In this document: one piece after another, positions 20,303 through 59,626 of the stretch | Layout of the letters: each line of letters starts with the position of its first letter | How positions within the stretch are numbered: the stretch's first letter is position 1 | NCBI GenBank assembly: GCA_002633005.1 | Contig: NMRA01000515.1 | Coordinates: 124,001-188,000, forward strand | Direction: 5' to 3' | Length of the DNA stretch: 64,000 nucleotides | DNA from: Phoronis australis | Lineage: Eukaryota; Animalia; Phoronida | Program-made: the position numbers and the translations under genes | The notes under the pieces: model-generated | What the model saw: the letters and a program-made list of their open reading frames with translations, nothing else | What the model was told of the DNA's origin: nothing | Databases searched by the model: none

Positions 20303-20632
20303 TCATAAATCATCATCAACCAATGACAAGTCACCTTCAGGTTGCATGTGTCTTTTCATGTCTGATATAGAGTCTAAATCAGAGTTGTCATCACTGAATG
20401 CCATTTCTCTGCTGAGAGTTGGGTAGCTGCGGTTACCTTGCTCACTATTGGCAGCTTCATCACTGTTTGATGGAACCAAAGCTTTAACTTCAGTCTGAAC
20501 ACTGTCGCCGCCAAGTGCTCCTCCCATAGAGGGGTAAGGAGGATTTTCAATTTTACATGGTTGTTCATCTGAGTTCTCCACAGGTCCTCCTCGTGGTGAA
20601 TGGTAAGCAGGTGGACTACTGTTCGTCCTTAT
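20303..20632 (-). CDS. terminal exon, low-complexity acidic tail containing PVENSD
   Basis: tttcag acceptor, 110 codons ending in TGA. Confidence 0.7.
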   Translation of the reverse strand: MRTNSSPPAYHSPRGGPVENSDEQPCKIENPPYPSMGGALGGDSVQTEVKALVPSNSDEAANSEQGNRSYPTLSREMAFSDDNSDLDSISDMKRHMQPEGDLSLVDDDL

Positions 20633-37430: not shown

Positions 37431-37595
37431 ATGATGACTTCAACAGAACAGGTTCAGCTGGCTGCTTCCTTGGATCTTCTGCGAGCAGAGACTACCAATC
37501 GACACCTATGCTTGTTCCTTGGCGAGCAGCTGTCAGCAACACCACAGAAAGATTTGAAAGGACTCATAGATCTTCTTAGAACCACGCCAACCACG
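37431..37595 (+). CDS. coding exon 1, start of SIR2-like domain (HLCLFLGEQLS)
   Basis: ATG at 37431, donor GTATGA at 37596; resembles the SIR2_2 LxLFxGAGxS motif. Confidence 0.7.
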
Positions 37596-40500
37596 GTATG
37601 ATTAGTGGAAACTGTTTCATTTTCAGATTGATTTAATAGTTCTTGGCCAAGGTATTATTAAAATCTGCTAGTTCCAATTTGTTGGCTTATAATCTTCTTA
37701 TTTGAAGCATCACCTAGAAAGAAGCTAAATGTTTTTCACAATTAGAATATGATTATGTAAAATGGAAACCCTATACTAGTCTGTGGCATGATCTTATTGT
37801 GGAACAACATTGTTAATAGATCCAACAAGACCTTCTGTTAGAATTGATGTGTACCACAAGACCTTCAATGCTGTTGAAAAAGTTATTCTAATGCACTAAA
37901 AAACTTTAGCATGCATGTGGCCGACATATCACATACAGAAACTGTGGTATGCTGTAGTATTCAGAGAGTAATGCTGAGACCTAAAATAGAGAAAAACAAG
38001 TTAATAGCATACAATTTATCTGATTTTATGATTGAAATATTTGAAATTAAATTGTCTGAAATATTTCTAATTGTCATAACTCTAGAATTTTTCTTGTAGA
38101 AATTTTTATACAGAATTCTGAAGATTTTCCCTATTATATAGGATAGTATAGGAGTAAATCCTATTAATGTAGGTATCTTATAGGAAAAAGTCCTGTAGAA
38201 TTTTCTACAGGATCTCCTGCTGAAGGTCCATACTATGTTAAGTTCTGCACACAATGAGCAGGCTAACTGGCTGCAAACTGCATGGTACAAATTAGTCTGT
38301 ATGTGAATGTCGGGTAAATGCAGCCTGTGTCAGAGAAATGACATTGGTTTATTTGAAATTCATTTTTGCACAGAAAAATAGATTAAAGTCAATTGTCATT
38401 GCTATATCCAGTTGCCCATCATATTCATAATGTGGGTGCTAATTGTTGTCATCTCTGTGTGAATGTCATACTTTATTCTTGTATTATAGTTCATTATAAA
38501 ATTATTGAAAATTGTATTTTGTGCTATGCTTCCATTGGCATTACAGGAGTTGGTTGATTTCATTGATCACCTAGAGGCTGAGAGTGGAGAGAGTGCTTAT
38601 CACATACACCATGTTCTACGAAGCATTGGTTGCTTCCCTGTGATTCTGACTGTTTGTGTAGACCAGTTTATTGAACATTATCTCATCAGAGACAAGCATA
38701 AGGTGGACAAAATCAGACTGGATTATCTCACAGTGAGTATAGTAGATACAAATAACACATGGTGGTAGGTTGTGTGTGCAAGACCTGCATGGTTGTTTGT
38801 TTATCAGAAACGAAACGAAACAGAAACTTGTAACTGTCATTTCCTACAATACAGGTGTCATTTGGAATTGAATTTGAACTCTGCTTAATAAATGTCTCAT
38901 TTCCACATATTATCCACTGTTTTGGCTACAGTCAGTAATTTATCATGTTTATCTATGTTTATGAAATGTCAAACTTGATTTACAATGAAGTGTCTAACGT
39001 CAGCTGATTACACAGAGTGCAGTTTGTGTTGTTTTCCATGTGTTGTGTGCTACCCAGTCATTGGTGTTGCTTTTGATCTATGCAACCTTCTAACTCACCT
39101 GTTTTGACTGCACTGTTTTTAATTGCCCTAAGGGTAATTATATTTCCTCTCACCACCTAAAATGTAGAATATAAACCAGACCCACTTGGACAACCACAAA
39201 AATATGTCTCAAACCTTTTCATTTCACTGCCACCAACACTCATATGTTCAGAGCAGTTGCAAACATTTATGGTTACAGGAGAATGCCAGTACTGCTATGC
39301 ATAGGGTGCATCACATTGACTTCAAATTTAAAAATAAGAAATTAGGTGTACCTTTGAATAATAAAGAAAAGTCCTCCAAGTTGTGTAGCAGTTATTTTCA
39401 ATTCACAAAAACAAATAAATACCGTATTCGCCCTAATAAGTGCCCAGGACGCTTAGAAAAATTCGCTTCAGGAAGGGGCCGCTTATTATAGCCCAAAAGT
39501 GGTTGAAACCTAGTCTCTAAAACGGGTGAAATAGTAAGCTAAACTTCATCAAATTTATGCTCTGTGACGCATCTGTAACCTATGAAAAGTTTCTACAAAA
39601 TTGCAGAGTGCATTTTTATCAAACTTTGTTGTTAAATTATGAGCATTTTTCAGAAATCCAGTGAAACTCGCCGACTGATGCATCGCTGCCTCGTGATCGC
39701 CGATAGGTCAACTTGAATTCTGGAGTAAAAATATAGTTTCAACTCCACAAATTACCTGAAGTCCTCCTTAAGTTTTCAAAATAGCATCCCTAAGTTTTTT
39801 AATTTCCTGTGCAGTCAGGATTAACTGCAAATTAAGTCCAAATCTGTGCTAGATCGTACCCTGCGACACAAGAAAAATCTCTGGACAAACACACATGTTG
39901 TGTGAGTGAGCGAGCGTGTACGTGTCATCAGAGTTCATTTGCCAGAGTAAACGCGAACGATCTAGGTGTGCATTGTAACTCAGGAAATTAACACATGCGG
40001 TAAAGCAGAACGTGTTTTGTTTAGCACTTGTTGATCTCATCTGCTAAAAAATGTTCGAGAATTGTCTCGGTAAGGCCGATGTCATTGAGTCACCGGGTGA
40101 CTGGATGCGTGACGGTCTAATAGTTATTTTTCGGGAGATTCGGGGGGTGTAAGGGTGTGGAAGTGTTCACTCTCAGTGGGTCATTTTGACTTTAAAAACA
40201 CCAATTACGACTAATTTAATAATTCCCCCTTAAAAATAACGGAAACGTTTTTTACGATATTAGAAACTTTCGGAAATAAGTGCCAGAATTTATTTCTTAC
40301 TGATGCTATGCTACCCGTTTCATGAATAGATAGTTCCTGACAGGTACTTGAATGTAGCGCGCGCTTCCTCGACACGTGCTTTTAACTGAACAATGATCAA
40401 GTTTTTATTAGTCTTCAATTCGTGGTTTTCACATGTAGGAAGAAATTGGGATTCCTGTTGAGGGAGATCTGTACAGGAAAGATACAATACAATTCCCTTA

Positions 40501-43500
40501 ACAAGTATGCTGCGCTTGTTCAGGCCATACCATAATAGGACACGTCTCCCGCAAAATCAGCAAAACTTGCGTTCTTTTTGAAGCACAGCTAAATACCAAC
40601 ATAGCAGCGAGGCTTGTGGACTACAAATTCCACACACAACGGTTTTTTCAGGACTGTCTGATCTTATTGATAAATTGAAGACGTTACTGTAGAATTTTAG
40701 AACTGTATATAGGTAAGGCATTTTCGCATGTACATGGCATTCATAGACTGGGCACTTATTTTAGCAAAGTCTGAAAACGGGTGGCAGCGCTTTGTCACGT
40801 TTTTCCCGGTGTGTGGGTGGGCGCAGGTTGTTACAGACCGGTGCTAATAGCTTTCGGTGCGAAGATTGACTGAAGACTGGTTCGAGTTAATCCTTTATTA
40901 ATCCCAACCATATGTTCACAAGCCTACTCAAACCAAAACGTCCGACGTAATGTCTGTTTATGCTCCAGCCAGTGCTGCGAAGCCTTGACTTGTGTTGAAC
41001 TTCTGAGATACTTCCAGCAACTGTTACACTCGTTGATTCAATAACCTGCTGTCTCTATAGCTGGCTCTCTATTGACTATCGCTGTAACTGCTGATTCTCT
41101 TCACTGCAACTCAACTGTAATCTCCTGATTAACTTTCTTGAACTGACTTGATCTCCCGACTTGATCTTCTTGGACTCAACTGACTTAATCTCACTAACAC
41201 AAACCCGTGCTTGTGTATTTATAGCCTAATTCATTGTTCTAGAACTTTTCATCAATTCAAGCACATACCAGAACTTTCTGGAACCTACCCAATCATTCTA
41301 CAAACATGTACTAGTCTCTGGAATATTCCAGACTGCATTAATCACTGTCATGCTAGAGTCTTCTAGAAAGTTCCACACTATACTGCAGTAAACAAATTAC
41401 ATCATCACTACTATGACCTCAGTCTTCTAGAAAGTTCCACACTATTTTGTAGTAAACAAATTACATCATCACTGTACTTAACTCAGGGGTCATGCCAATC
41501 AAACAGAATAACAAAACAATACAACTAAAAATACTGTCAGACTATATTCTGACACGCTTATTAGGGCGAATACCGTAAGCATCACATAAGTTGTAAATCA
41601 ATCATTCATTTAAAACTGAATAGTTTTTAACCGTAACATGTTTCACATTGCTGTAAACTAATATTTCATGTCAGAGCTTAGTGTGGAGACGTTTTTAGTT
41701 CACGTAGGAATTTCTTTGTCCAGCCTTTCGGTAACATTATGTGTGTTTCTCGAAAAGTAACTTATAGTGTAATTTTCTTGTGAATGTCAATATGCAATTT
41801 GATAACCATTATTACGTTTTGCACGAAGCACAGGGTAAGATCTAGTGAAACTTAATCGTATTGAGAGGGAGTTTGATTTTGTAATTCAAAACTCATGTTA
41901 TTGAAGCATTAAACCTTCCTTTTTTGAGTTTAATGCAGTGGGGTGTTGTTTACCTTTTCAATAAATTCATCATGGCACCAAATCGCGCTATTGAGCGATA
42001 GGATATTCAGTGTCCAACATTTCAAATGATGTCCATGAATAAGGAAGTTATGTTTGGTCCCTTTCAGCTCAGCCGTCTTGCAGACCAGAATTAGAAATAT
42101 GGGCTCTCAAAATTTTTGTGAGTTATTTGTAGAATGTTTCCTATCATGGCAAGGATTTTAAGGTCATAAGTCAATTTCACGATGGCTGTTTATGCATTAT
42201 TTGAAGGGTATGGTGTACTAAATTAATGCATTGTTTTCAGGAGGAAGTCCAGTGTCACAAGTCAGACAGAACATTGTTAATTAAATGCCTTGGCGATACT
42301 TCCTGCAATCCTGCTTTGAAACCTCAGGTACTGTTCTGACTTGAAATCATTGAATAAAATGTTTGTCATAGACTAAGAGGAGAAACATTTCTGCTGTTTG
42401 GGGACTTACCAACAAGCATTTGTTGATTAATGTGCAAAGTAATGTCTGTTGAGGTAAAAGCTCTTGAATTTATATTATTTTTTTGTAAAGGAAATGTAGC
42501 ACTGAATAAAAGTTTCTAGATTTTTAGGTTCTGTGTCATAGTTGTTATGAGATAATGTTTTATAAATTGTGGGCATTCAATATTGTGTTAAAAGTGCTTG
42601 AAATGTGAAAAAATTGGCAAATGAAATTGATGACATTTTATCTCATAAAGTGTTCGTCAATACTTAGTCCTTAAACATAGCTGAACATTCACTGGAGGAC
42701 TATTCACCTCTTGGTGAGAAAGATATAAACCAAAAGAAAGTAAAATTCTTGTTCAGTGTGTTATTGTTATTAAACCAAAGCAAATTACCTTGTCTGACTT
42801 ACTTAAAAAAACCGCATACGGTCTTTAGTTACCAGTTATGTTGCCTCTTTTTATCTTCCTCTAACAACAACGAATCAAATCGCCATGTGTCATCTTCTAG
42901 TCTTAGTTTTTGACCTATTGACGTCATGTAGTGACCTGAATGCCAGCTAATTGGAATATTTAGCATGGCGTTTTAGACCCACTATGACGGCATGTCTATT
43001 CTAATTTCCGGGTCCAAATTGCATCGTCTCCTGCCATAACAAGTCATCACTAAACATCTGAATAAGCCCAGTGAATGCTTCAGTTCACAAGTTCACCGGT
43101 AGATTAAAAAAATGTAAATGGCGGGGTGACAAGCGAAAAGCAAACAGTCAAATCTTTGAGTGAATAAGCTCTTTCAAAAGTCTTGATTTTCATGCAGTTG
43201 TATTCGCCGAGATCAGTTTTTTCATGCAATCACAATTTCGAAGTATGCAGGTTAATATTTCATGTGCAATTCGAGTGTGATATTATGACTTGATTCCACA
43301 CTTTCACTGTGTGGACTTCCAACCCGGTTTAAGAGTTATTTTGACTAATAAAATGTATGAATATTATGGGATAGAGTACTGTAACTGTAATGTAAGCTTC
43401 TGATAATAATCAGTGACTTCATACTCAGCCATAAAATCTATTTAACCTTTAACCTTGCAGCATTAAAGATTATTTATTTTAGTGCTTTTGATGTTTTCAT

Positions 43501-46500
43501 TTGTATCAGTTGTTTATTTATGTTGCAGTCCAGCTGTTTGGAGTTATACCAGTCTCTCTCAGAAAGTGACAGTGAAGTATCCAAAGTGATTGAAGACCTC
43601 TTTCAAAAATATACTGTTTTGTTTTTCGGCATCCAAAGAGATGATCCTGTCCAGGCCAAATTTCTTCAGAAGTTTGCTAAAACCAGCAAGGTAAGTAAAA
43701 GTTTTGATGGCTCCACTATGTGCTGTGTGCTGCATTTTTTCAATCTATTTATTGTTGTTATTTGGATATTTGGGAATTTTATGTTAATGTGGTCACAAAG
43801 CTATTTATCCTAACTGTGTTCATTTTAACTTAACTCTGGTATGAGTGGAACCTCGATGTAAACTGTGAAGTTAATTGAACCATTCATACCTGCTTCAGTT
43901 AATGGCATTGATGTAAGTGGTAGGTGACACTGTTGCCTTTGAAGTAATCGCAAGGTGGCAATCACATAAGGTGACATTTGTGTTAGACTTGCGGGGTTTT
44001 CGTCCCTGGCCTGTGCACACTCAGATTTTTTAATGTGACAAATTGAGAACATTTACGTGTGATAACTTTCGTAAAACTTATTTTTAATTCAACTGGTTAT
44101 TATTCGAGAAAAATAGTAGCAAATATTAATGATAAAACTCACCCTTAATTTTTGAGGATAGTAGTGGCTGGCCCTCGGGATAACTGCAATGATACCGAAG
44201 TTGGCCGTTTATACCACACCGCAGTGACAACACTCAGCTGTTAAATCCACCTGTTTACTGTAAAGTTATCTGGCACTGTTAACTGCAATCCAGGACTGAA
44301 GTTAATCGTTCATGCTGATTCCCAACGCCCCAAAACATTTATGAGTTGACATTAGTATGACTGAGCCTTTTAAGATACACATTACAATGTATTAGATACA
44401 ATCAAAACAAAAATTAAATCAATCTTCAATTTCAGAGTTCTGCATACACATAAGCACAATGAGGAAATCAAGGGATTGATATTCAGAAACAGAAATAATG
44501 TTGCTTTTTATTTTTCATTTTCTAGAGACAGCACTTCCTGTTTGAGTGTGGCGAGACGACAGACTGTGTGACAGATGGCTCCCTGACCGTCCTCCGTGCT
44601 AACACCAGTCCTGATGAGTTTGCCCAATATTTGTCCTCAGGTCAAGTTGTGGAGTATTCATTAGAAGAACTTAAGGGCAAGGTGCTGTCTACACATTTGT
44701 TTTTAAGCCTTGGAAGTTTTCTATTACTCTGATTAATCTGTTATCTGTTGGCTTTTAATTTTTCATTTTCTTTGCTACTAGATATTTAATTATTTTCACT
44801 TGATCACATATCTGTGTAGTTCTAAATTGTTTAAACTTTGGTATGAGATTGTGTTTTGGCAACTGGACATTGATGGAATTTGTACTTTAATCTTCAATTG
44901 CAATGCTATCTTGTTTTGTTGACCTTGCCATAAGAATGTCTTGTCATTGTGCGCATTTGCCTGTTTTAGGTGTTAGAAGTCTCCTTTTTGCCCACCCAGA
45001 GAGAACAGTATCTACTGCAGCAGCTGTATTTAGAGCAACAAAGTGTGGAAATTGGCATTCAAACAGTCAAGATCACAAATGCTCTGTGTACTGATGAACT
45101 GTTGAACAAGGAATCCAGGCCTGCCATTCGGAAGATTTTTGAAAACGACCCATTTAGTATGTTATTTTTGAAATTTTTAGAATAATCTTCAGTTTATTTT
45201 TAACATCCATGTTTTAATCTAGTAAGGTAATTTTTGAGCATTCAGAATAACTTGACGCTAATTTTTCCAGGAGATCCCTATCATGGCATACATTGAAAAT
45301 TGGATTTTACTTGCACATAGTCCATCGAACATGGTTCATGAAGGTGTCTTTGTCACAGGTGAATAATGAACAATGGTCAAGGGTACCGCAGTAGTTGCAG
45401 AAAATGCAGCATTCCTTTTTGTAATAACATGAGCTAGTGACCTTTGATAAATCAGACCCCTGGTGCACTGAGTGGGTTGTTTGTTGTTCTGAGTTTCCAC
45501 AAAACTGGGCTTACATCATGACAAAGGAACTTTGAGGCACATATTAGTTAAGGATCCAGAAGTTTAATGCTCAAACATAGGGCATCGGATTTAGTACTCA
45601 CACTTCTGTGACGATTACAATCTATTTATTTCTTAGTCCTTCTCTCTTTTCCATGTATTATAGATTTATAAAGACACTAGTCACTTACAGGGGTACTATT
45701 AGATTTATAAAGACACTAGTCACTTACAGGGGTACTATTAGATTTATAAAGACACTAGTCACTTACAGGGGTACTATTTAGATAAAACTAACTGTGGGAC
45801 CACAGCAAGTGAGTAATATCATAAAAAGATGTCGATGAAGCTGTTAAATGTTGACAGTCAAATACATGAGCACATTCTTATAGATGATTACTTCATGGCA
45901 AACTAGTGTTAAAATCTCATTTACTTTGTGATAATTGTGAATGGTTTCACATAACCGCAGAAATATCAGCTTGTCATCTGTGTGCAATAACCCATTTGTA
46001 GTGGGCCGATGGGATGACAGTACAGTTGACAAGGTAATGACAGCTATGGTGAAGAGGAGGAATAATTTACTGAAGGTAAGTTGTTCTCAGTTTTTTTAGG
46101 TAAACATTTGTTAAATCATTGAATAAATTCAGTAAGCCAATAGAATTAACCAAGTATGTTTACCGTATAGCTCATCTAGATCATAGCTTAGATTTGCGAT
46201 AAAATGTGGTGCAGTCTGGTATTTAGATTAAATGTATAGTTAAGTCTTATCAGGTTATTAGTCGTAAACTATCATGTCGAGTAAATCCTAATTGTTATGA
46301 CAGTGCTATTACCAAAACAACCTTTGTCATCCCAAACCCCAAAGAAAATTAAAGCGATAGATTGAAAGCTACTTTGCTGTTGTTAAGATGTATACACGTC
46401 TTGACTATTCATTTTAACCATAACTTTTCCTTATTTCATCCTGCAGTTCGTCTATATTTTGTTTAAAAAATGCCCCCCCCCCCTATTTTCTCACAAAATT

Positions 46501-49500
46501 CTGAGGTCTTCAGTTAATGCATCATGGAAGTGAGACATGTCCTGAGCATTGCCAAGTCAGTCGAGTATCTCCATTGATGTGTGCCAAAAGCTCTAATGTT
46601 TTCTTGCGAATTTCAACGTCATAGTTTTAACTGGCGTTGGGATTTATTTTGAAGACGAATGCCAGTGGGAGATTGGGACAATACATCATGGGCTGGGGTG
46701 TCTGTGCACAGACTACCCACTGATCTAAGACTGCGTCGCCTGTGGGTAGACTGTCAAGTGCACGAGCAAGCACAATTAGGATGGTTGAACCATTTTTTCG
46801 TTTTTAAAGAAATTCTTCAATATCATCAGAAAGATAATGCATCCCGCACTACAAAAATTAAAAAAAAATATCGAAATCAGGGGAAGCAGTACAAAGTTAT
46901 AGCAAGTTTTGTGGAGAAATTTAGGTCACATTTTTTGGATCGGGTCAGCCATCTTGGAAGACAGTGGCATAAATTAAGAGTCTAAAACTGTTTATAAATG
47001 GTATTTCACTCGTTAAATATATTTTTGTGAGCACATGGACCCGTTTTACTCCTTCCCCCCCTCATTTCAGTCTATTCCATTATTCCTTGTGCAGGACTAC
47101 ACTTCGTTTTCCCAGCCTTCATATTGGTCTGTTGTTATCTCGTGTCTTGAGTTTGGTCAGCTCTTGGCTCTCATAGGCTGATGATTGTCACATGTCCTTA
47201 GGCATTTTCTTTGCTATGGCAACCTTGTTTTCAGTTCACATTTGTTCAAGCCACATTGTCGTACGTTCCAAAACTTATTAATTTTTCCCACCCTCTACCA
47301 CCCTGTTTTTGTTCTTTCGTACTTCCACGTGGCTGGCACTTTTTTATTGCCCATCTTACCAGAGATTATCATTTTTTTATTTTTATTATCTGTATTCACT
47401 ATATTTACTTGAAATTCTCTTCGTCATAATAAATGACCTTATATTGCCTACCTCGGTCTCCTTGTCATCTCTGGTAACGAGCTTTGCATGTATCATTTAT
47501 CCATTATTCGGGACATATGTTGATCATAAATTATTTTTACCAACGTTTTACAGTGAAAGTTAGTGAGACGTATCTTTATCTGCTATTGCATGTCATTTAA
47601 CAGTTTTCACCAGAATTTAGTCACGGGTCGAGTGAAAACTTGCAAAAATTTACTCGTCGCTTGAAGACTCATTGCTATAATTCTCGTATTCCACGTTGGT
47701 TCCTAGCCTTGTGTGACTGAGTATACCAAGCCTGTCTCACTTCCGTGTCGTCATCAATGATTACATAACACACAAGCCTGCATTCAGAATTGACTCACCT
47801 GAAGTGGGATGACATCATTAACTCCTGGGCTTCTCTAATTAACTGCATCATGCGGACATTAACTGCTTTGTGTAATGTGTTCATATAGTGCTATCTTTTT
47901 GTTGGAAGGAGTTGTTATAAGTGCTATTCAGAACGAAATCAATATAGATCAGTCATAGAGGTAGTAAAACTTATTGCACCACATTGCGTTCAACTATTAC
48001 ACAAATTCTATTCAAAATTCAGAATGATGTTTGTTTCCATTTTTTGTTACATTTCAGGTATCCTCTACTGGCACTGCTAAAGTCACTGCAGTGTTCAGTT
48101 TTCAAGCTTTCCTTACAGAGATCAGTTCTTCAAAATTAACGGAAGAAACTAGAAAAATGGCTCTGCGCAAATACACTATGGTCATACTCCACAGTTGTAG
48201 TGAACTGCACAGTAGTTACAACCTGTGGCTGAGAGCAATACCTCCCGAGGAGGATGCAGCTTCTATATTGGATGAGAAGTTTGGAATATTTCGTTTGAAA
48301 GGTAGGAAAGTGATAATAGATTATGTCATGCTTGTATTTATCTTTTGGTTATGATATTAACTGCTTGTAGAAATATGGTCATGTTGACATAGATTTTTTG
48401 ACTCCCCCTAGTGTCGAATTTGTTTTTCGCCCGTGCTTGAAGTCTATCTTCAATAGCAACACAGTGTAAATTTGGTTCCTACAGTATGTTAAGAGCATCG
48501 CTCTGAGCCAACTAGTGCCATAAATTGCCAAATGTAACAAAGTGTTAGGCGTATTAGCTTGCTTTTGTTTACGTCACCGCGAGAATCACCTTTTAATTCA
48601 AACAGCTGTGAATAACTCCCACATGCAATGGTGTTTTGTTCGGACCCTATTCAGTGCAACTGTTATCAGCCTTTTGTTGTTTGTGCTGGGATCTCGCGGT
48701 GACGCAACATGGCATGAAAAGGCAGTTTCACCTATCATTTGACGGGCTATATTTGCGTTTTCTTAAGGCTTTGCTAGGACTATCTGGTTAGCCCAATACA
48801 TTTAAAATAACAAAATTCCGTTGAAGTTAGGCTTAAATGTCTATCAAGGTTGTTGATGGATATTCTAGAAATTTGGTATGTATGTTTCAATGGAAATGGG
48901 TATGCCTGCCATAGATTTTGGGACAACTTCAACTACTGTGGAGTGTAGCATCCACTAGTTGACAATTTTGGTATTGTTTATGTGTGACATGTGGGTCTAT
49001 ATTTGCCAAGGTCCTTAACAGAAGTTCACAAAATTTGACAAACAAATTGTTATCAAAAAGGAGACAGCAGCATGTGCCTTGTTTCAGACATATCTGATGT
49101 ATGCTGCAGCCTATAGTGACCTTTTTAATATTAATTATATGTTACATGATACAAACACCTTGAAATGCATAATGCTTGCGGTGCAGTCATGGGTGCATTG
49201 GTCTTGTTTTCCAACCACTCAGAATTTTTGTTTATAACAATCATAAATTAAATACTAAGACACGTTTGAGGCAATCAAGTCTTTATTGTTATTTTCCAAC
49301 CTTCAAAGCTTGAAAAAGTAACATTTTGATCAATAAGTATAATGCACATTTGTTTGTTTTAGTTTAATAAATTAAGTCTTATCATAGTTCCTTCTAAAAA
49401 TACTCATTACATGTCCCAGTGCAATTACTTTACCTTCTGAATGCTCCTCCTAAGGTGGCCAAGATGAAGGGATTGCCTATGCTGAACCTGCCATAATTGG

Positions 49501-52500
49501 TAAAAAGTCATACACGTCTCACTTTTTGAGTATCAATGGTCCAGAGGTGTTGAGGAAACGACGAATCATTGAGAGGAGTTTGACCCAAGCTTGGGACCAT
49601 GAGAGAACTGTGTTTGAGTTGACTGTTGCTGTATTAAGGGAAAACAAGCTGATTAATGCACTGTCGGTAAGTAGGAGCTGGCAGGGCTGGATTATGATAG
49701 GAGTCTCTGGCGGTTCTGAACCCTCCTGCTGAGTTGCTTTTGTTTTTCTGTATGGGAAGAATATGATGTACTTGTGTTTGTCCATTGTCAATTAACCCTC
49801 CTCTACTTAATGTCAACACTGCTACAACCAAGTCATGTTTACCATTGTGTATTGTGACGTGATCCTGATGTGCGAAAGTTGCCATATTGTATAATGTGTT
49901 ATTCTTGTCAATGAATTTATGACCAAAAATTATCAAAAGAAGGAACAATTAAGGATTACTGCTATTTTTAACTATTTGTTTTTAATGCTGAAATGCTGAC
50001 CCCATTCCCTAGTTAATGTTTACTTATTTAATGGTTTGTGTGAGGTGTATGTATTAGAGGTGTTTGTATAAGGTGTATGTTGATATCTACATTTTACAGT
50101 TACTTGCAATGCCTTAAATTATGGAATAAAAAAGTCAAGGTTCACACAGTAAGGCATACAACATTTTGAAAGTTTGTGTTTTTGTAGACGCGTGATCGCC
50201 AGTGCCTTGAGTCACTGCAGAGTGTTCAAGTTCTGTCAGAGATGAACTTGATAACTGGGAGTTTTGAGAGGATCAGTGAAGGTAGTTTTGGAGAAGTATT
50301 CAAGGCCAAGTGGAGCAAAAATGGTGTCATCAAGAATGTTGCTGTGAAAATCTTGAAAAACATCAGCTCAGTTGTTGACCTTGACAACTACCGCAGGGAA
50401 TATGAAAGTATGAGGTGAGCTTGAAGTCCTGTAAAAATTGTTGCTGCAGTTGCCAATATCCTGAGGTCTTCTAGCTATAACCTCACTCCATGATCTCAAA
50501 ACTTGCAATAAGATCAAAACCCTTTCTGCTCAGCAACTTCTAGTGTTATGACCTCTATACCCAATACGACACATCATTCTTAGACAAAACATTTCATATT
50601 TCAATCGCAGTAGGTTCACGACTGTCCAGCAGTCACACCTAGACCGACACATTGCTCAAGTTGATTGTCTCGCAATGATATCACGGGATGATTCAGGATT
50701 GTCTATTATAGAATGAGTTGCAGTCTCTTACTAGCCTGATCTTAAAGATATTAGTCTTTCAGGTTTACAATAATGATTGTTTAACCTTTAACTAGAGTCA
50801 TGTGATATTAATTAGATGTAGACTTGTTGCTGCTATTTGCTCTGACCCACAAAACGTTGCTTCCTTCATGATTCTCATGTAAACAATATATTGTTCAAAA
50901 CTGTTCACCCTATATCTGAAGCATCAACAGATAACATAACAAGTAGTACATAACAATTGTTTCATAGTGTGAGATCCATACAGCTCTTCACAGTTGAGCA
51001 TGTTGCATGCGTTTTACTTTCACCCCTAAGTCATCTTCAAAGTTTTCAAAATTCATTTTAGTAAAGCCAAGCATCCGAATATTGTGGAAGTGTACGAGCC
51101 TTACAGAAAGAGCAACCAACTGGGATTGATCATGGAGTTCATGGAGGGAGGTAGTATTCGAGACGTGATCAATAAGAACCCTGGCGTGGGTCTGTCCAGA
51201 GAGTTCACCTACCGATGTGCACACCAGGTGGCGTTAGCTCTAGCATTTCTTCATCAGCAGCAAATTTGGCACAGAGACATCAAGGTGGACAACATATTCG
51301 TAAGTGGATCGGTTCTGTTGTGGAGGCTGGTTAAGGTTACCATACTAGCACGGAAAAGTGTATGTAGGAAATTTCAAATACTTTGGCTGTTTTTAAGGGC
51401 CATATTACTAGATGATGGTCGTTTCATGCCAATTTTAGCACCCATCATTGCAGTATGCTTTGCTTCACATTAATCTCCATTTCAAATACCATCTTTAATA
51501 CATGACATTAACCAGCAATACCTTACTTTTGTCTTCAGTCAAACACACGATATGAGTGATCTGAGTGGTTAATCATTTTGATTTTTGTAAAGTGTTCTTC
51601 AATTTAACACACAGCGTGTCAGATGAATGGAATTTTATTTTGTCAAGTTTATCAACAAACACCTGAAGTGTTTTTCTTCAATTTATTGTGCTTTGTTGTG
51701 TATAGCTATCATAAAACAAAATGAAAAATTGCAGTTTTGACAACTATTTCTGGGAAATTGAGAGGTTACTGTTACAATACTATTTCCTCGTCTATAATTG
51801 ATTTGATAATGGCAGTATGTATGACACACACCTAATGCCTTGACATAACATGAGTAGACGCTCGAAAGTACAAGTGGAAAAAGCAAAATACAAATAGAAG
51901 TCGTATGGGTGCTGGATGTTCAGTTTGCATTTTTTCATCGCCTCTTTTTTGCAGCCCAAATTCAGAAATATGAGGGGACATTTTTGTCTGTGTTGAACGC
52001 TGTTCTAATGTGTTAAAATTTAAATACATTTTATGTTCATATTAGATTTTCTCCTGCTTTGCAGCTTTCAGGGGACCATCAGACTGTGAAGATCGGTGAC
52101 TTTGGTCTGGCAAAGCTGAAGGCCAACACACGTAACACCAACACACAGGACGTGGGCTCCTATCGTTATATGGCACCAGAGGTCGCTAGTGGCACAGCTA
52201 TGGGCAAATATTCTGCTAAAGCTGACGTATACAGCTATGGTAAATTGTGAAACAATGATTCATTTAATAAATGAATCTGGTTGTTTCTGGTGTAAGTTTT
52301 GATAGCTATCAAATCTTTATTTTGGTCTGCTAAGTCAGCTAAAACAGAGATTCAAGTTAGGCCATTAACTCTCATAATATTCCTTAGTATGATAGGATTT
52401 TATTTCTATTATCAACAAGAATATCGAGACCATCAGCGACTTAAGAAAACTCATCAGAGTTTATTGTGGAAGGCCAACCCTAAAGCTGGGAATTTGAGAA

Positions 52501-55500
52501 TTGCGCACATTGACTGTGGGTTAAGCTGCCGGCTCCTTTGGGAACAATTCAATCATTGGTAAATGTAGCAATCTTGCAAAATGCCCCAGGATGCTGAATA
52601 TCATTATAGCAAAATCAAAAGTTTACACAAAAGGCATACAGGTAAAATTTGTTTGCTTTTCCTGGCTTCTTTTGTTATTGGTAGTTTCTGCGACATTACA
52701 AATGTTGGTAGAAAACAAAAATGTTGGTGATCTTTATTCATTAACTTTACTTGTGCACTCAAAGTTGTTTGTTTATTTTCTGTCATAAATATGTTGAGTT
52801 CTTCAAATGAAGTCTAGTTCTCAACTTGTTCCATACTCAGATTAGAACTACATTGGGAACAATTGACAGTTTGTTATTGCTTGTGGTCATACTTGGCAAA
52901 TAAAATGACCCACTGGAGACCATAAACCATTCCTTATTTAGTTAGGGACAATTTGAGACTAATTTTATAGTTGTAAGTGACATTTGCTCAGCCAGACAAA
53001 GGGGGTCTAACAGTCATGGAAGGGGGTTGGAATGAATGACTACTTGGCGCACTTTGCAAAATTGAAATGGGTTTCGACTGTGGTAGGGCTTTTTTGCTAT
53101 TGCCCCCCTCCATTGTACCCCCTGTGGCTACATCAATGGTAAATGATCTAAATCAAAAGTTGAGATTTGAAATTGGCGTATACCTGTAATCTTGTTGTTT
53201 CTTATTATCGTTGATCAGTTTCTGTTTATAAAATTACATGAAATGCAGTTTCCAGTATACCTGAAAATCAGGTTTTATGTCTTTCGTGTCGAGGAACATT
53301 GAGATAGACTGGACCCCAAGTTTCAAAAACAATGGTCACTATAACCGTAGTGCCTGTCGTTAACTGTTGTTTATGCCCATGAGGAATGAATAAACCTCTC
53401 ATTAATCATAGACCCTCCACTAGTTGCTATTTCCAATGTGAATGTATTCATTTTGTGACATCATAGGTGGTGCAGTGAGTGAAATGAACAAAACTTTTTT
53501 AGTAACTTGTTCAATGTGTCAAATTGGAATTTCTCTGGAGGTTCTTACATTTTTGACAGTAAACTAATGAATCACCTTTGGATTTTAAGAAAAAAATTAC
53601 AGCTATAATGTTGGAAAATGTGCAGCTATCACTGTCTATAAGTCATATCAGGAGACATGAGTCGTGATGCAGTTTTCAAAATGACCCTTTGCTATGTTTT
53701 CCAGGTTTGATGTTGGCTGAGATTATGATGGGTAACCTTGTATTTAGTAACATTCCCATCCACCAGGAGGTCTACAAACTCAAAGTATCTGCTGACTTGC
53801 CAGTCCTGTTGCCAGTATGTAACTCTTTCATTGATATTGACTTCTCAGTGACTGTTTCTGGTTTTGTAGTGTGACCTTCTCAGTAAAGGACTGCTTTCTA
53901 GCATTGTCTTCAAAATAAATCTGCACTATTGCACATTTGCATTATGGTTGTATGGGGGGGACGGCAGATGAAATAAAAATTTATGGGTGGTTGTCTTCTG
54001 AAAGAAATTTAAATTATAGGTGGTCTTTCTTGAAAGAAGTAAAATATTGTTGGTTGGTGTTTTTCGTCCTGTAAATGTTGGTAGGTGGGTATTTTTGGCC
54101 AAGCACCGACCTCCGACCTTAATACCTCTGAAAAAACTCCAAAACTCACCACAAATTCACTTGACAGATATCCAAAAACAGCAGAAACAAGCCAAGGTGC
54201 TACTGTAGTTTACACTGCAATATCAGAGATGTGTTAAATGATTCTTGGCAATATGTACACTGTGCCATTACTCAAGTCATGGGCAACTTAATTACAGGCA
54301 ATGTTGTACAGTCATTTTAGAGTGAAAATTACTGACACCAAGACTAAATTGGTGTTAACACATTCAAAAAAATTCTCTCTGATGAATTTTTTAATAAAAA
54401 GTATGTGGAGTCAGATAGACAAGCTCCAATATTCACTTGGCAAACCAGTCTAAAAGCATTCGTGGAATCACTTTGAGATTCGTAGATTCATGAAATTGAA
54501 AAAATCTTATTGAAATTACAGACGCCTGGTAGACAGAGACACCTGGTGGCTGCCTAATGTATTGTTCACAGTTGTCTTTAAAAAGCAAGTTTCTGGTAAC
54601 TGACATGAGTTGTGATCTCACATAGCATTTTTTGCACAATTTAAAAAATATTGGTGGTTGCATTTCAACTTAATTAAAAATTATGGGTAGTGGTTAAAGA
54701 AATAAAAGAAAAATATGGGGAGTTGATAAAAAATGAATGTGCTTTCCCCACCCCCGTCTCCCATATGTTTTGTACTGGAACAGCCCTTATTATAAACTTC
54801 AGTTGTCAATATTTAAAGAATGACAAGAACTTTAAAATAGCATAACCGTATAAGTTACAATCGTATGAACAATGTGACATCATTGGTTCTTTGCAGGAGC
54901 ATAGTGAAGAGCATTATGGTGCCCTGATGTGTAACATTGTGAAATATTGTGTGCAGCGTAACCCTCAGTTCAGACTCGCCATACAGCAAGTTTTGAACAT
55001 GTTAGACAAAGGTCAAGATGAGGTCACCGCACGCTACACGCCCTCCACTGGGCTCTATCTGCTATGTCTAGGTACTGGTAAAGGAGCCACAGGTATGGAG
55101 AGGTTCTGAAATGAGTTAGTTGATTAAGATTGGTTGAAAAAATGTTGACTATTATGAAAACGTTGATTCATACTTACAAAATATGGGTATCAGCTAGACT
55201 TTGGAGGACTATAAACCTGAAACAATACTGGTGTGGGCAGAGTTTTAATTGATACATTCTGTTACATAGTATTGTGCAATAGATTGACATTATTTATTTT
55301 TTATTATTATTACTCCAGAATGTGAAATTAATTGTTAACTTACTAAGTATAGCAATATTTCTGTTGCTCTTGAGGAATGCGTCTGGAACCATGCCGTTAT
55401 TTATTCATCTTAATTCTGTTTTCTGTTTAGCTGTGATTCACAATGAACCTAGTTCATCCTTTGTCATACTGAACAACGGGCATCCACTGCTTCTGGTTGA

Positions 55501-58500
55501 CATGGGACTGGGTGTTTTATACTCCTACAGAAATTTTCTGGGTGAGTAGGTGACTTTCTTTGCGCTCAAGTGAATGTTTTCCCAGTATGTGAAGCTGTCG
55601 TAACTTGATAGATGTTTTGACTTATCCAGCTACTCCAGAAGTAGAGAGTTTAACTTTGGCGTACCTTTGTTAAATTTGTTCATAGTCATTCAAAATAGCT
55701 TGATATAGCTGTTTGTTGTTCATCATGTGGTGTAAATGAACATCATGGCAACAAGGAGTTTGTGATAGATGTGTTACTTTATTTTTACAAAATTTAAATT
55801 CGGTAAGGCATTTAAGTTGGTATTACAGAATACACAAGTTTCTTTGTCAAAGTTGTTGGACTCCAGTGTGGTCAATATAACAGTTAAAATTCAAATCATC
55901 ATCTTTGACCGTGGTACATGGCCAAAGTCTGCGCAGTCTTTGACAATGATTGTGGAAAAATTTAATAGGTCTATCTAGAAAATTTTTGTTTATTGCCAAT
56001 GCCTTCAGGATGATTATGGAAAAAGTTAAAAAAATTACGAATTGCGACTTGTAAAATCTTATCTTGTTTCAATTGTAAAAAATTCAAAAACAACAAAAAA
56101 TTGTGAAAACATGGGTTCAACAGTTTCATTGTTTGTTTGTTCTGATGCATTTATTCAGGTGACACACTGCCAAAGAACATCTTCTTAACTCATAACCACT
56201 CTGACCACACTGGGGATCTGCCTGTCTTCTTTGGTGTCCTGGCTCCTAAGCTGTTGGAGCTACCCAAGAAAGCATTGAATATTATTGCTGCACCTGAAGT
56301 AATGACTCGCGTGAAGAACTACAGGATGCATGAAATTGTCTCCCATGTCACTACTCTAGCCAATCAGCATTCAGTTGTAAGTACCGTAATATAAGATGGC
56401 AATGAAAAACTGATCGGTTTTCAGCTGTTATTTTAAAATTTAGAAAACAACTCTTTCAAGTACTGGTTGTAATTGATTAGAGTTAATTGGTATTTATTTG
56501 TTTGGTATTGATAACACAAATTTGATTGTCATGTATTAATATTGTGTTGTGTTGTATCAATACATACTCACATAAAGTTGTGCCATCATAGGATCCTTTA
56601 GCCAACTGGGTAAGCACAAAGCCAGACTTTTCCCAGTACACCTACTTGGATGAAAAGAAAGAATTTGCAATAAAGACACTTCAAAGTCAACACTCAGAGA
56701 CTTGTTTTGGTGAGCTATTAAATTGCTCATTTTGTTCTCTTAATTGTGTGTACAGCTCAGGATTTGGTCAGGGGTAGTCTGTTATACCCTATGTCGGCTC
56801 CAGCAGTCATTGTAGTTTCATGGCTTTGAGTCCCTTTGTAAGAAGACAAATGAACAATAGAAGATGTTTAATGATGTCCTACTATTTGACATTCTTTGCT
56901 ATCATTAGATAGGTTAGACTGAATAATCAAACTAGAACTAGCTTAATATTTACTGTGAGTCTCAAAGTGAGTTGGTCAACTTTCACGTCAGGGAGACCAC
57001 ATGATCATTTGCCATATCCTTATTTCCTTGCTGCAATCTGATCTGTTTTTCACACATTTGAAAACTTCTGTGTTAGTTACTTTTGTGAAAAGGTTAAATT
57101 ACGTATTACTGTCATTGAATTTTGATACAACAGTCCTTCAAAGTAATGTTTATGTTTTTTATGCGCAAATAAGTTGGTGCAATAATTGAGAGCTGAGAAC
57201 GCACTCATTATTGTGAAAAACATTAGCAATGAACACCACCTGCCTAAACATTATGAAAAGTGGTTAGTAAGTGTTACCTCACATCACACAGTTTTCCCAA
57301 TTTCCAGGCTTTGTTTTGTACCACAATGAACATCCTGTCCTTGGCTACTCAGCTGACTCAGGATTCAACAGTCACTTGTATGAGACTGTTTATCAAGCTG
57401 ACCTGGTGATAGTTGATGCTCGTCTGTCCTCTTCTTATGAACATGCCAGTGTAAGTGTCAGCAGTTTTACACTACCCACAATGCACTGAATTTGTATTCT
57501 TTGGTAATATTCATCATGTCAACTTAAGTCAACTGGTCTGTTGTATTGCAGCCATTGATTGGATTACTGACAGTTTTTATATATCACAATACTGTCTTGA
57601 TTGTAGATGATGAGAATAGTAGTTTTGCACTGCATAAACAATGCATTTTACAGACTGGTATCATGATTGACTGTTCCTAATACTAACTGTAATTTTGTGA
57701 AATCAAGCTGTTGTTTGTTATATTTTATGGAATTTTAATAGCACAAGAAATCACCATTCTAAGGTTTTGTGTAGTAATACTAAATTGTAGCAAATCAACT
57801 GCCATAATACTAAATTGTAGCAAATCAACTGCCATAATACTAAATTGTAGCAAATCAACTGCTATAATACTAAATTGTAGCAAATCAACTGCCATAATAC
57901 TAAATTGTAGCAAATCAACTGCCATAANATGCACTGAATTTGTATTCTTTGGTAATATTCATCATGTCAACTTAAGTCAACTGGTCTGTTGTATTGCAGC
58001 CATTGATTGGATTACTGACAGTTGTCTATTTTTTATATATCACAAAACTGTCTTGATTGCAGATGATGAGAATAGTAGTTTTGCACTGCATAAACAATGC
58101 ATTTTACAGACTGGTATCATGATTGACAGTTCCTAATACTAACTGTAATTTTGTGAAATCAAGCTGTTGTTTGTTATATTTTATGGAATTTTAAGAAATC
58201 ACCATTCTAAGGTTTTGTGTAGTAATACTAAATTGTAGCAAATCAACTGCCATAATACTAAATTGTAGCAAATCAACTGCCATAAATGAGGTAGACACAT
58301 CTTACCACTTCATTTTCCAAATTTCAATCACAACAACAAACATTAATATTTGTAAGTGAGTAGCACAATCATTCACTCTCTCATGTGGCAGGCAAATTGT
58401 GGAACTGATTTTAAAGTGATATTTAATTTTAGTCAAAACTTAGTGTTCATACCAACTTAAAATGAACATTAATCATGATTGTTTTTGGCTTTTGAATATT

Positions 58501-59550
58501 GATTTCTTTTCCTCTAATCATGGTGGTAAAACTGCTTTTTGATAAACTATTTTGCTTTTTTCAGTTTGTCGAGGTACAAAAGTTCAGCCAGGTTAAACAG
58601 GTGAGAAGATTGAAAATCCCAGTCCCCACGTCAAAAAAAAAAAAAAAATATTCAAAGTAAAAAGTTTTCATGGCATTCATTTTGAAAATCTTATTGTTTA
58701 CAGTCATTTTAGTGCTTCAAACCAAACACACCAGAATACACACACATAATAAATCTATGAGCTTACAGATGGGAGGTTCTTTATAGAATTCATAATAGCG
58801 TTGTCATGGCAACAATTCCTATATGTCTACCAAGCATCTGCTGAAGCAGCTGAAAACTCATCTTCCATCACAAAAGCAGATTTTGATTTAGACCACTTAC
58901 CTTGAATTGGTCTCAAATTGTCATGTAGTCAAATTGGAGATCATGTCAAAGCTTCAAAGATCGTCAGACCAGACTCTTTAAGTTGAATTGTCACGGCATG
59001 TCATTTTATGCACTGCCCATTGTCTCGCAGAATAACTGTCAGTTCTTTGCAAATTCTGAAATCTTTTCTCGTTTGAATAAGAAACTAGTTGTGACCAATG
59101 TAAAAGTTGTCATCCTGAACGGCACATGGGTTTATAGCTGTTTTAATGCTTACTTTATGAAATGATTATTTTTGTGCAACTTTGCAGTTTGAATACATTT
59201 TTTTAACTTGTATTTAGCAATTAGTAGCTATCTCACTACCACCAAGTAAAGGAAAGTTTCCTTAGAAAGTGGTAACAAATGCATTCTTTGACTTACGCTG
59301 ATGTAAATTGCATAACCGTTTCATGTTTTAGCATTTCATTTCCTTTTTTCTGCTATGAAATGTTGTTGTTGGTTTCTAGCACAAGAACGTGTACGTGATT
59401 GGATATGGTACTGAAAGTGAAGCGCCTTCTTCAGCCGACTATCCAGAACTGAATGTCTTAGAGACTGGGTCCTTCTATGCACTTGACACTAAACCTCACC
59501 ATCCTTTGGACACCTCTGATCAATACCCATCACTAGAGAGGGCAGTGTGA
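37431..59550 (+). CDS. 20-exon gene, 1071 aa: degenerate SIR2-like + DUF5753-like + Ser/Thr kinase + MBL-fold metallo-hydrolase fusion
   Basis: Exons 37431-37595, 38547-38732, 42241-42327, 43529-43690, 44526-44681, 44970-45156, 46002-46075, 48058-48301, 49455-49666, 50188-50414, 51062-51299, 52065-52239, 53705-53814, 54897-55092, 55431-55541, 56159-56376, 56592-56709, 57308-57450, 58565-58600, 59380-59550. All introns are GT-AG and phase-compatible; total 3216 nt = 1071 aa + TGA. The kinase C-terminus and MBL N-terminus share exon 54897-55092. The exon 5 donor is the least certain. Confidence 0.85.
38547..38732 (+). CDS. exon 2, SIR2-like (VILTVCVDQFIE)
   Basis: ttacag acceptor, GTGAGT donor; matches the IITTNYDxLIE motif with N replaced by C. 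Confidence 0.8.
39422..41575. mobile_element. non-autonomous CCGTA-ended Tc1/mariner-pogo-type transposon in intron 2
   Basis: TIR CCGTATTCGCCCTAATAAG and CTTATTAGGGCGAATACCG (1 mismatch), TA flanks. Confidence 0.75.
40793..41554 (-). mobile_element. solo LTR, 762 bp
   Basis: TGTCA...TGACA termini, 5-bp TSD CGCTT, TATA-like and AATAAA signals on the minus strand. Confidence 0.8.
42241..42327 (+). CDS. exon 3, SIR2-like (LLIKCLGD)
   Basis: ttttcag acceptor, phase 0-0; matches the LxKLHGD motif with H replaced by L. Confidence 0.75.
43529..43690 (+). CDS. exon 4, SIR2-like (DLFQKYTVLFFGIQRDDP)
   Basis: ttgcag acceptor, GTAAGT donor; matches the LFxxxTLLFIGYSxxDP motif. Confidence 0.85.
44526..44681 (+). 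CDS. exon 5, end of SIR2-like domain (RQHFLFECG...)
   Basis: strong polypyrimidine tract plus tag acceptor; phase 0 donor aag|gtgctg is weak. Confidence 0.65.
44970..45156 (+). CDS. exon 6, start of DUF5753-like domain (LYLEQQSVEIGIQTVKITNALCTDE)
   Basis: ttttag acceptor, GTATGT donor, ends phase 1. Confidence 0.8.
45661..45777. repeat. 39-bp tandem repeat, 3 copies
   Basis: unit TAGATTTATAAAGACACTAGTCACTTACAGGGGTACTAT. Confidence 0.9.
46002..46075 (+). CDS. exon 7 (GRWDDSTVDKVMTAMVKRRNNLLK)
   Basis: tttgtag acceptor, GTAAGT donor; phase 1 to 0 bridges exons 6 and 8. Confidence 0.75.
48058..48301 (+). CDS. exon 8, DUF5753-like core
   Basis: tttcag acceptor, GTAGGA donor; KVTAVFSFQAF...YNLWLRAIP...KFGIFRL. 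Confidence 0.8.
49455..49666 (+). CDS. exon 9, end of DUF5753-like domain (IAYAE...NGPEVLRKRRIIERSLTQAWDHERT)
   Basis: phase 1 to 0, GTAAGT donor; aag acceptor after a pyrimidine tract. Confidence 0.75.
50188..50414 (+). CDS. exon 10, kinase subdomains I-III (ISEGSFGEVF, VAVK, REYE)
   Basis: tttgtag acceptor, GTGAGC donor; canonical kinase N-lobe motifs. Confidence 0.92.
51062..51299 (+). CDS. exon 11, kinase IV-VIb (HPNIV, MEFMEGG, HRDIKVDN)
   Basis: phase 2 to 0, GTAAGT donor; intact catalytic loop. Confidence 0.95.
52065..52239 (+). CDS. exon 12, kinase VII-IX (DFG, YMAPE, DVYSYG)
   Basis: ttgcag acceptor, GTAAAT donor. Confidence 0.95.
53705..53814 (+). CDS. exon 13, kinase IX-X (LMLAEIMMG)
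   Basis: ttccag acceptor, GTATGT donor, phase 1 to 0. Confidence 0.88.
54897..55092 (+). CDS. exon 14, kinase XI (CVQRNPQFR) fused to MBL start (LLCLGTG)
   Basis: ttgcag acceptor, GTATGG donor; both domains in one exon and one frame. Confidence 0.9.
55431..55541 (+). CDS. exon 15, MBL motif I (SSSFVIL...LLVDMGLG)
   Basis: tttag acceptor, GTGAGT donor, phase 1-1. Confidence 0.9.
56159..56376 (+). CDS. exon 16, MBL motif II (IFLTHNHSDHTGDL)
   Basis: ttcag acceptor, GTAAGT donor; HxHxDH motif. Confidence 0.93.
56592..56709 (+). CDS. exon 17, MBL motif III (SQHSETCFG)
   Basis: catag acceptor, GTGAGC donor, phase 0 to 1. Confidence 0.85.
57308..57450 (+). CDS. exon 18, MBL motif IV (LGYSADSG, ADLVIVDA, EHAS)
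   Basis: ttccag acceptor, GTAAGT donor. Confidence 0.9.
57775..57924. repeat. 30-bp tandem repeat, 5 copies, inside a duplication 57481-58284 joined at an N (57928)
   Basis: unit TAATACTAAATTGTAGCAAATCAACTGCCA. Confidence 0.9.
58565..58600 (+). CDS. exon 19 (FVEVQKFSQVKQ), 36 nt
   Basis: long T tract plus cag acceptor, GTGAGA donor, phase 0-0; supplies the helix expected after the H-A-S motif. Confidence 0.7.
59380..59550 (+). CDS. terminal exon 20 (HKNVYVIGYG...LERAV*)
   Basis: ttctag acceptor, TGA at 59548-59550; AATAAA candidates near 61039 and 61052. Confidence 0.8.
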   Translation, partial: HKNVYVIGYGTESEAPSSADYPELNVLETGSFYALDTKPHHPLDTSDQYPSLERAV

Positions 59551-59626
59551 GATGTGTGTGGGCACTTAGCAGGAATACTTATTGACTGTTGATATTAAAC
59601 CTACTGGTTGAACTGTTTGCGTTCAA

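Follow-up and report, generated by a model that had tools for sequence, protein, structure and literature searches.

RNase L and IRE1 combine a sensor region, a kinase and a C-terminal hydrolase, the KEN domain, in a single polypeptide, and the PLD-like domains of the FAM83 proteins have a kinase-binding role. To our knowledge, the known immune links between bacteria and animals mostly concern single domains. Among SIR2 proteins, FAM118B loses its NADase activity upon mutation of N163 or H206, according to the accessible part of a preprint (10.1101/2024.09.18.613514), and both residues are likewise described in the accessible part of PMC12700824; the accessible text of section 8 of the SIRim preprint names NLR-like and SIRim-Macro architectures. 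The metallo-beta-lactamase (MBL) fold enzymes Apyc1 and YhfI cleave cyclic mononucleotides, as stated in the available portion of PMC9117128, and in the available portions of PMC10364602 and PMC8939145 DUF5753 is described solely as an uncharacterised C-terminal part of XRE regulators. Here we describe a gene of the phoronid Phoronis australis that unites a SIR2-like domain, a DUF5753-like domain, a Ser/Thr-type kinase and an MBL-fold hydrolase in one protein, and whose non-kinase parts very probably derive from a bacterial gene pair. The gene lies in a stretch of 64,000 nucleotides (hereafter the window; contig NMRA01000515.1 of assembly GCA_002633005.1, positions 124,001 to 188,000 of the forward strand), and all positions below are counted from the first letter of the window.

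The gene is made up of 20 read-defined coding exons, which give 3216 nt and 1071 residues with no internal stop, exactly the frame length proposed in an earlier sequence-only reading of this DNA. All 19 coding introns were seen as joints in each of three stranded raw RNA-seq runs of one study (X2, X3 and X4; reads mapped to 36800-52400 and 47950-61000), at 2-25 reads per joint and run and in a single orientation. Eighteen of them were reported as GT..AG, and the joint 50414/51062 was reported shifted by one base, although the sequence itself reads GT..AG. The possibility that the two halves belong to separate genes is answered by the joints 48301>49455 (4, 3 and 12 reads in X2, X3 and X4) and 49666>50188 (10, 10 and 16 reads), which tie the N-terminal half to the kinase. 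The kinase-MBL junction falls within one exon, as had been claimed, since that exon codes for parts of both domains. The transcript was chained junction by junction from short reads, and a contig of 2063 nt from a second study (X1, which has the same species label as the three runs and whose RNA origin is a guess) covers 50191-59843. Of 14 checked coding differences between reads and genome, 11 are synonymous, only the best-supported differences being listed. A merger of neighbouring genes by the gene model is hardly conceivable: although no one read or contig spans the whole transcript, every joint recurs in all three runs and collinear full-length orthologues come from three phyla. The window thus holds one real, expressed gene with a single four-domain protein, laid out as follows.

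ends at 37127, plus strand: 5' untranslated exon upstream of exon 1 (X1 contig and one read in X4)
37418..37595, plus strand: coding exon 1, ATG at 37431, residues 1-55 (RNA joints)
37431..44660, plus strand: SIR2-like domain of SIRim type, residues 1 to about 245 (reads and profiles)
37431-37595, 38547-38732, 42241-42327, 43529-43690, 44526-44681, plus strand: exons of the SIR2-like domain (RNA joints)
44673..49663, plus strand: middle domain, predicted DUF5753-like with a PLD-like fold, residues about 250-490 (bacterial homologues)
44970-45156, 46002-46075, 48058-48301, 49455-49666, plus strand: exons of the middle domain (RNA joints)
50242..55013, plus strand: Ser/Thr-type protein kinase, residues about 510-780 (motifs and profiles)
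50188-50414, 51062-51299, 52065-52239, 53705-53814, 54897-55092, plus strand: kinase exons (RNA joints)
54897..55092, plus strand: kinase-MBL junction exon, residues 742-806, with the kinase end and the first MBL strand
55053..59484, plus strand: MBL-fold hydrolase of YhfI/Apyc1 type, residues 794 to about 1050 (profiles and fold)
55431-55541, 56159-56376, 56592-56709, 57308-57450, 58565-58600, 59380-59550, plus strand: MBL exons (RNA joints)
59548..59550, plus strand: TGA stop codon (gene model)

A sequence-only model with two false exons, 45271-45358 and 45961-46001, and without the real exon 42241-42327 contained stops and was overruled by the reads. The X1 contig differs from the genome in the first three bases of exon 10 (50188-50190), an in-frame allele or variant. 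Same-strand reads run past the TGA to at least 61000, as a 3' untranslated region or a downstream transcript. No second copy of the gene was found inside the window.

The same architecture occurs in other animals. A word-based homologue search with the MBL exon gave no match; a HMMER search of 1.84 billion representatives with this exon yielded 37 relatives, none of them four-domain, including a 544-residue SIR2-MBL protein of amphioxus (P0035). A search with P0035 led to four-domain proteins of Ptychodera flava (1078 residues), Glandiceps talaboti (1086), the sponge Corticium candelabrum (1131) and Branchiostoma (1104), and a further member is a JGI/Logan cluster that groups with Corticium. 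End-to-end identity to the window protein is 39% for Ptychodera (1098 columns) and for Glandiceps, 35% for Corticium and 34-35% for Branchiostoma; by domain, the animal orthologues reach 29-33% in SIR2, 36-46% in the middle domain, 38-45% in the kinase and 27-49% in the MBL. The architecture had been taken to lack any characterised animal family, and none was found: the named relatives are annotated as 'uncharacterized', one under an unrelated name. It is, however, not unique, being common to a sponge and deuterostomes. Judged from these sequences the animal family is old and patchy, and its range is a minimum because the searches were word-limited. In Branchiostoma belcheri, P0035 and P0044 divide the parts between them, a four-domain copy having a decayed MBL and a SIR2-MBL copy an intact one; both paralogues retain the pseudo-SIR2, the four-domain copy retains the kinase, and the two-domain copy has neither middle domain nor kinase. 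Close locus numbers, on contigs of equal length, suggest that they are tandem paralogues. The amphioxus SIR2-MBL protein P0050 is present in EukProt and may be in the supplementary set (Table S4) of the SIRim preprint. Other members of the MBL family, their other domains not in view, are P0013, P0018 and P0020, from a bdelloid rotifer, a dinoflagellate and a coral, the last as a fragment.

The non-kinase parts have their counterpart in a pair of bacterial genes. A scan of GTDB genomes with the MBL alignment gave 61 loci, 55 of them family-level, and at 12 of these 55 a gene matching the animal middle domain lies within about 900 bp. Eleven of the 12 partner genes are complete and encode proteins with a match to the animal SIR2 as well; the twelfth is a remnant beside a transposase-like frame. 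Of the 80 loci from a metagenome scan with the bacterial SIR2 proteins, two are duplicates, four are new members and the remaining 74 hold other SIR2 genes. An MBL gene adjoins three of the four new loci but none of the 74; set against the 42 of these 74 that have 1.5 kb or more of downstream sequence, the contrast has a Fisher p of 3e-4, the rows not being independent. Fifteen distinct pairs are at hand: ten in tandem with the SIR2-middle gene followed by the MBL gene, which is the animal order, four convergent and one divergent. Their hosts span at least four phyla, including Acidobacteriota, Chloroflexota, Bacteroidota and Pseudomonadota, with one cultured strain (L044). A profile-profile comparison matches the N-terminal half of the animal protein to the bacterial protein along its full length (443 columns, 100% probability, E 1e-42); profiles built from bacteria only find the window protein with E 3e-11 for SIR2 and 9e-24 for the middle domain, and the reversed sequence gives no match with either. 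The module is rare and sporadic, as the middle domain was met in none of 1600 further sampled genomes. In the SIR2 tree (P0045 omitted), the animal and the paired bacterial SIR2 domains, on long branches, are placed together by a split with support 62, the window copy being the longest animal branch. In a quick MBL tree, which omits P0018, P0044 and L032, the animal MBLs cluster as a single clade (support 87), nested in a weak group (82) to which two SIR2-linked bacterial MBLs also belong. Before anything was counted, L064 and L065 were removed as duplicates.

Several bacterial loci depart from the simple pair. At L026 (3231-6032) the SIR2-DUF5753-like unit is fused behind CHAT and trypsin domains, and at L008 (3-2303) it stands behind a probable NB-ARC fragment (E 0.064). 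ThsA-type Macro genes at L042 (3291-4082) and L045 (2211-3092) adjoin SIR2-DUF5753-like genes in which the catalytic His has become Asn, and at L001 (5626-7549) two MBL-family genes in tandem are convergent with a SIR2-DUF5753-like gene. At 30 of the 55 MBL loci (L004:6717-7352 and 29 others, L002-L051) the MBL adjoins a conserved membrane protein of about 210 residues, which matches no Pfam family and never co-occurs with the SIR2 partner (no overlap with the 12 loci); these loci, hosted mostly by marine Gammaproteobacteria and Rhodobacterales, make up a second undescribed gene pair. At least two different genes thus have this MBL as their constant partner, a pattern that fits a signal-handling enzyme better than an output nuclease.

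The SIR2-like domain belongs with the SIR2_2 type shared by FAM118B/A (SIRanc/SIRal), ThsA, LmuA-SIR2 and KomC. PF13289 (SIR2_2) matches exon 4 of the window with E 0.002 and the orthologue P0042 with 52 bits against a cut-off of 24.5. The best PDB sequence match of the animal SIR2 is FAM118B, a weak one (E 0.008); in that alignment the TTN motif lies opposite N163, and H206 corresponds to the residue preceding GD. In the window the motifs read GEQLS for GAGxS, TVCVD for TTNYD and KCLGD for KxHGD, so that the catalytic Asn is replaced by C92 (codon at 38655); wherever the GAGxS loop was matched in an animal row, it reads GExxS. The NADase His is found in none of 10 animal proteins, compared with 10 of 15 bacterial ones. 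Because the catalytic residues are lost, the animal SIR2 is predicted to be an inactive pseudo-NADase, and it further differs from the FAM118 and SIRim enzymes in its fusion to DUF5753-like, kinase and MBL domains. The bacterial relatives match the LmuA, ThsA and Dsr models, which marks the SIR2 as the immune SIRim type. With the PADLOC models (2023 library), 11 SIR2 proteins were matched over the SIR2 part only, and three MBLs gave one weak match of 25 residues.

The middle domain is linked to DUF5753 only indirectly, by way of its bacterial homologues. Direct Pfam matches to DUF5753 were seen neither on the window exons (E up to 1) nor on six animal homologues carrying the domain (E up to 0.5); among 14 bacterial homologues PF19054 is weak on two, with E 0.001 and 0.03, both below the cut-off, and the better match scores 19.2 bits against a gathering threshold of 23.4 over profile positions 5-178 of 178. 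When the Atlas model of the L012 protein is superposed on DUF5753 clusters, themselves predicted models, TM is 0.69-0.72; for unnamed C-terminal domains of XRE regulators it is 0.72-0.75. In the actinobacterial XRE-DUF5753 regulators the domain is thus comparable in predicted fold, whereas here the unit is attached to SIR2 instead of a helix-turn-helix domain and scores below the Pfam cut-off. The whole-domain fold matches of the Ptychodera middle-domain model (pLDDT 65) are all of the PLD superfamily, namely vaccinia F13, NgoAVII, TrmBL2, Zucchini, NucT and FAM83, so that PLD-like chains such as those of TrmB and FAM83 recur. A wide fold search with this model gave helical-bundle noise (best Z 6.3) and Foldseek nothing at E up to 0.001; an Atlas search with exon 8 returned no useful match, and with the bacterial middle domain as query no score of the feature search reached 0.8. 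The HKD motif (HxKxxxxD) is absent at conserved positions in 22 sequences. Eleven residues, mostly polar, are invariant in all 22 bacterial and animal sequences; they would fit a conserved ligand pocket and make the domain a predicted ligand sensor.

The kinase retains every motif that had been read from the sequence: VAVK with K545, the alphaC E562, HRDIKVDN at 637-644, DFG at 658-660 and APE at 683-685; in its glycine loop the first Gly is Ser. No named family stands out, the scores of MLK, RAF, STK24/25, NEK7, CDK and bacterial StkP lying close together at 88-98 bits. The metagenome locus L063 (533-3739) encodes a kinase-SIR2-DUF5753-like protein followed by an MBL gene, which are the four domains of the animal protein in another order. 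Its kinase is about 30% identical to the animal kinases, the same as an unrelated bacterial kinase. At this level of identity a common origin of the two kinases was rejected, and a kinase was probably recruited twice, independently in L063 and in animals.

The MBL domain keeps D830, HNHSDH at 855-860 (H855, H857, D859 and H860), H950, D972 and H1001, and has G1023 at the position of the His in LMHYG of Apyc1, which we take to be the last metal ligand. The eight other active-site positions are conserved from sponge to hemichordates, the last His is kept in 14 of 16 SIR2-linked bacterial rows, and the Gly variant is also found in stand-alone MBLs. The earlier assignment to the RNase Z and phosphodiesterase (PDE) type of MBL holds. 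YhfI-type BA1088 ranks first by profile (E 7.5e-16), followed by Apyc1-group entries (1e-14 to 2e-9), within whose range rice RNase ZS1 is placed (7e-10 over about 100 residues), and then by B. subtilis RNase Z (3e-8). In the full-length Ptychodera model (pLDDT 78, pTM 0.52) the MBL superposes on BA1088, ZipD and Apyc1 with a root-mean-square deviation of 2.5 A over 235-236 residues. The 236 aligned residues compare with a total length of 244 for Apyc1 and of 306 for ZipD, so that the tRNA-binding arm is absent. Scores for the Apyc1 family lie far below the cut-offs (Pfam 15.7 against 50 in the sole member matched, NCBIfam 33-43 against 400), the precomputed database label PF23023 on family members being a weak match, and those for the NCBIfam RNase Z models (24-44 against 252-293) are comparable to that of the cyclic-nucleotide PDE model. 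The domain shares with Apyc1 and YhfI a short fold that has no exosite and the HxHxDH motif, and differs in its identity of 17-19%, its Gly at the last His and its fusion in an animal kinase; with RNase Z/ELAC it shares the fold, the LGTG start and HxHxDH, and differs in the arm, the last metal His and scores below cut-offs.

Our favoured reading, to which we give a probability of about 0.45, is that the fused bacterial pair with an inserted Ser/Thr kinase forms a ligand-gated signalling kinase whose MBL processes the signal. In bacteria, the DUF5753-like domain would bind a small phosphorylated ligand and so switch on the attached NADase, and the adjoining MBL would hydrolyse, or make, that ligand. 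An early animal lineage would have acquired and fused the pair, the NADase being disabled and the kinase becoming the output. Ligand binding may then cause the pseudo-SIR2 to oligomerise, as FAM118 and ThsA do, bringing kinase domains together for autophosphorylation, and the MBL may reset or tune the signal by acting as a phosphodiesterase on cyclic phosphates, most likely in the setting of innate immunity or stress signalling. The single transcript model, the kinase motifs, the collinear bacterial homology and the loss of catalytic residues in the animal SIR2 are firm, and the origin from a bacterial pair is much firmer than the ligand-gated mechanism. The missing catalytic residues of the SIR2, the sharing with sponge and deuterostomes and the bacterial pair had all been overlooked by the sequence-only reading.

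Several observations weigh against this picture. The SIR2 partner is not in view at 43 of the 55 MBL loci, the trees (with the supports given above) leave the direction of transfer unproven, and five of the 15 bacterial SIR2 proteins also have no catalytic His (Asn in four, Tyr in one). The fold matches of the middle domain all have Z below 5. The last metal His is Gly in all eight animal rows with an intact MBL, a loss that may leave the activity changed or low, and by fold ZipD, an RNase Z, ties with BA1088 and Apyc1 (Z 25.9-26.0). A plasmid scan gave no match for the module, and in a viral scan the MBL exon had no relatives and the bacterial protein found five SIR2-only loci and no full-length one. 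Defence-type neighbours occur at 5 of 13 linked loci (L003, with type I restriction-modification, TIR, patatin and Mokosh, and L005, L012, L042 and L045) against 2 of 10 controls (p 0.41; 52 of 128 control frames were scanned, and generic matches such as Lon and methyltransferases were not counted), and several linked loci lie among housekeeping genes (ftsQAZ, Lon, RNase J). An immune role is accordingly a lead only, suggested by the SIRim-type SIR2, the sporadic spread, the swapped N-terminal domains and the defence neighbours. Less likely than not, in our view, is the further reading that an as yet undescribed immune module of bacteria, in which a ligand-gated SIR2 NADase works with an MBL that handles its nucleotide signal, entered early animals whole and was rewired, with the NADase disabled and a kinase inserted, into a nucleotide-sensing innate-immune kinase.

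Other functions can be read from the same parts. The sequence-only reading had proposed an effector in the manner of RNase L and IRE1, in which sensing falls to the N-terminal half, and the kinase undergoes autophosphorylation and activates the MBL as the output nuclease or phosphoesterase. The order of sensor, kinase and C-terminal hydrolase is indeed common to these proteins, RNase Z equals YhfI and Apyc1 by fold, and its models score like the PDE model, all far below cut-off. The nuclease part of that proposal fares worse, as the MBL is short, has no tRNA-binding arm and by profile resembles YhfI and Apyc1 first; the KEN domain, the ankyrin repeats and the luminal domain are all absent. Unlike the hydrolase of RNase L and IRE1, this MBL can decay or part from the kinase: the four-domain copies of amphioxus lost its ligands and kept the kinase, the two-domain paralogue keeps the MBL and has no kinase, and most bacterial pairs have no kinase either. 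We therefore consider such an effector unlikely. Only slightly better placed, though still improbable, is a metabolic sensor, whose module would clear or monitor a metabolite of the NAD/ADP-ribose or ribose-cyclic-phosphate kind while the animal kinase reports its level. The fold match to PhnP (Z 22-24), the Macro genes at L042 and L045, the housekeeping surroundings and steady expression across the three libraries fit this, but a very sporadic distribution in bacteria and a patchy one in animals, the immune type of the SIR2 and the swapping of N-terminal signalling domains do not.

It is less probable again that the protein is a kinase on a scaffold of decayed enzymes, with the SIR2, PLD-like and MBL domains serving as interaction or oligomerisation surfaces. 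The lost SIR2 catalytic residues, the absent HKD motif, the last metal His missing from all animal copies and the FAM83 PLD-like domains among the fold matches all point that way. Decay of this kind is difficult to reconcile with eight MBL active-site positions kept from sponge to hemichordates, with the same Gly variant in stand-alone MBLs, or with 11 mostly polar middle-domain residues held invariant from bacteria to animals. The ligand-gated kinase with a signal-processing MBL thus stays the reading that we favour.

Around the gene, a 39-bp tandem repeat (x3.1) at 45661-45783 resembles an exon, and the reads skip over it; intron 18 contains an internal duplication with 30-bp arrays and one N (57480-58285). 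Intronic repeats at 39405-41600, 46699-47740 and 48465-48834 collect many divergent reads on both strands and are probably copies of dispersed repeats or transposons. On the minus strand, 36610-36678 may be exon 1 of a divergent gene, with an ATG near 36678 and a good GT donor, head-to-head with the window gene and separated from it by DNA richer in CpG. Pfam matched none of the additional minus-strand frames (17008-17313, 20306-20671, 27739-28178 and 28849-29475), nor did it identify any other open frame tested in the window. An assembly gap or masked run of N lies at about 1300-1730, distant from the gene.

The reuse of bacterial immune-type domains in animals is already known, and the combination of domains is visible in database annotations; what is new here is the correspondence of the non-kinase parts to a rare bacterial gene pair. 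A full-text search, outside whose coverage most subscription papers lie, brought up no account of either the animal family or the bacterial pair, and neither is named in the accessible parts of 10.1101/2025.09.30.679545, PMC13069673, 10.64898/2026.10.19.760177, 10.64898/2026.09.04.749371 and PMC8195603, or of section 8 of the SIRim preprint. In this family a single animal protein preserves the gene order of a complete bacterial pair, and an enzyme output has apparently been exchanged for a kinase, so that the conversion of a prokaryotic module into a eukaryotic signalling protein can here be put to the test. The finding also points to an uncharacterised bacterial SIR2-MBL system and offers a starting point in the search for the ligand of the large DUF5753 family. 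If the immune-module account were true, DUF5753-like domains would be nucleotide sensors in bacteria and animals alike, and sponges and invertebrate deuterostomes would have retained a kinase with a built-in off-switch.

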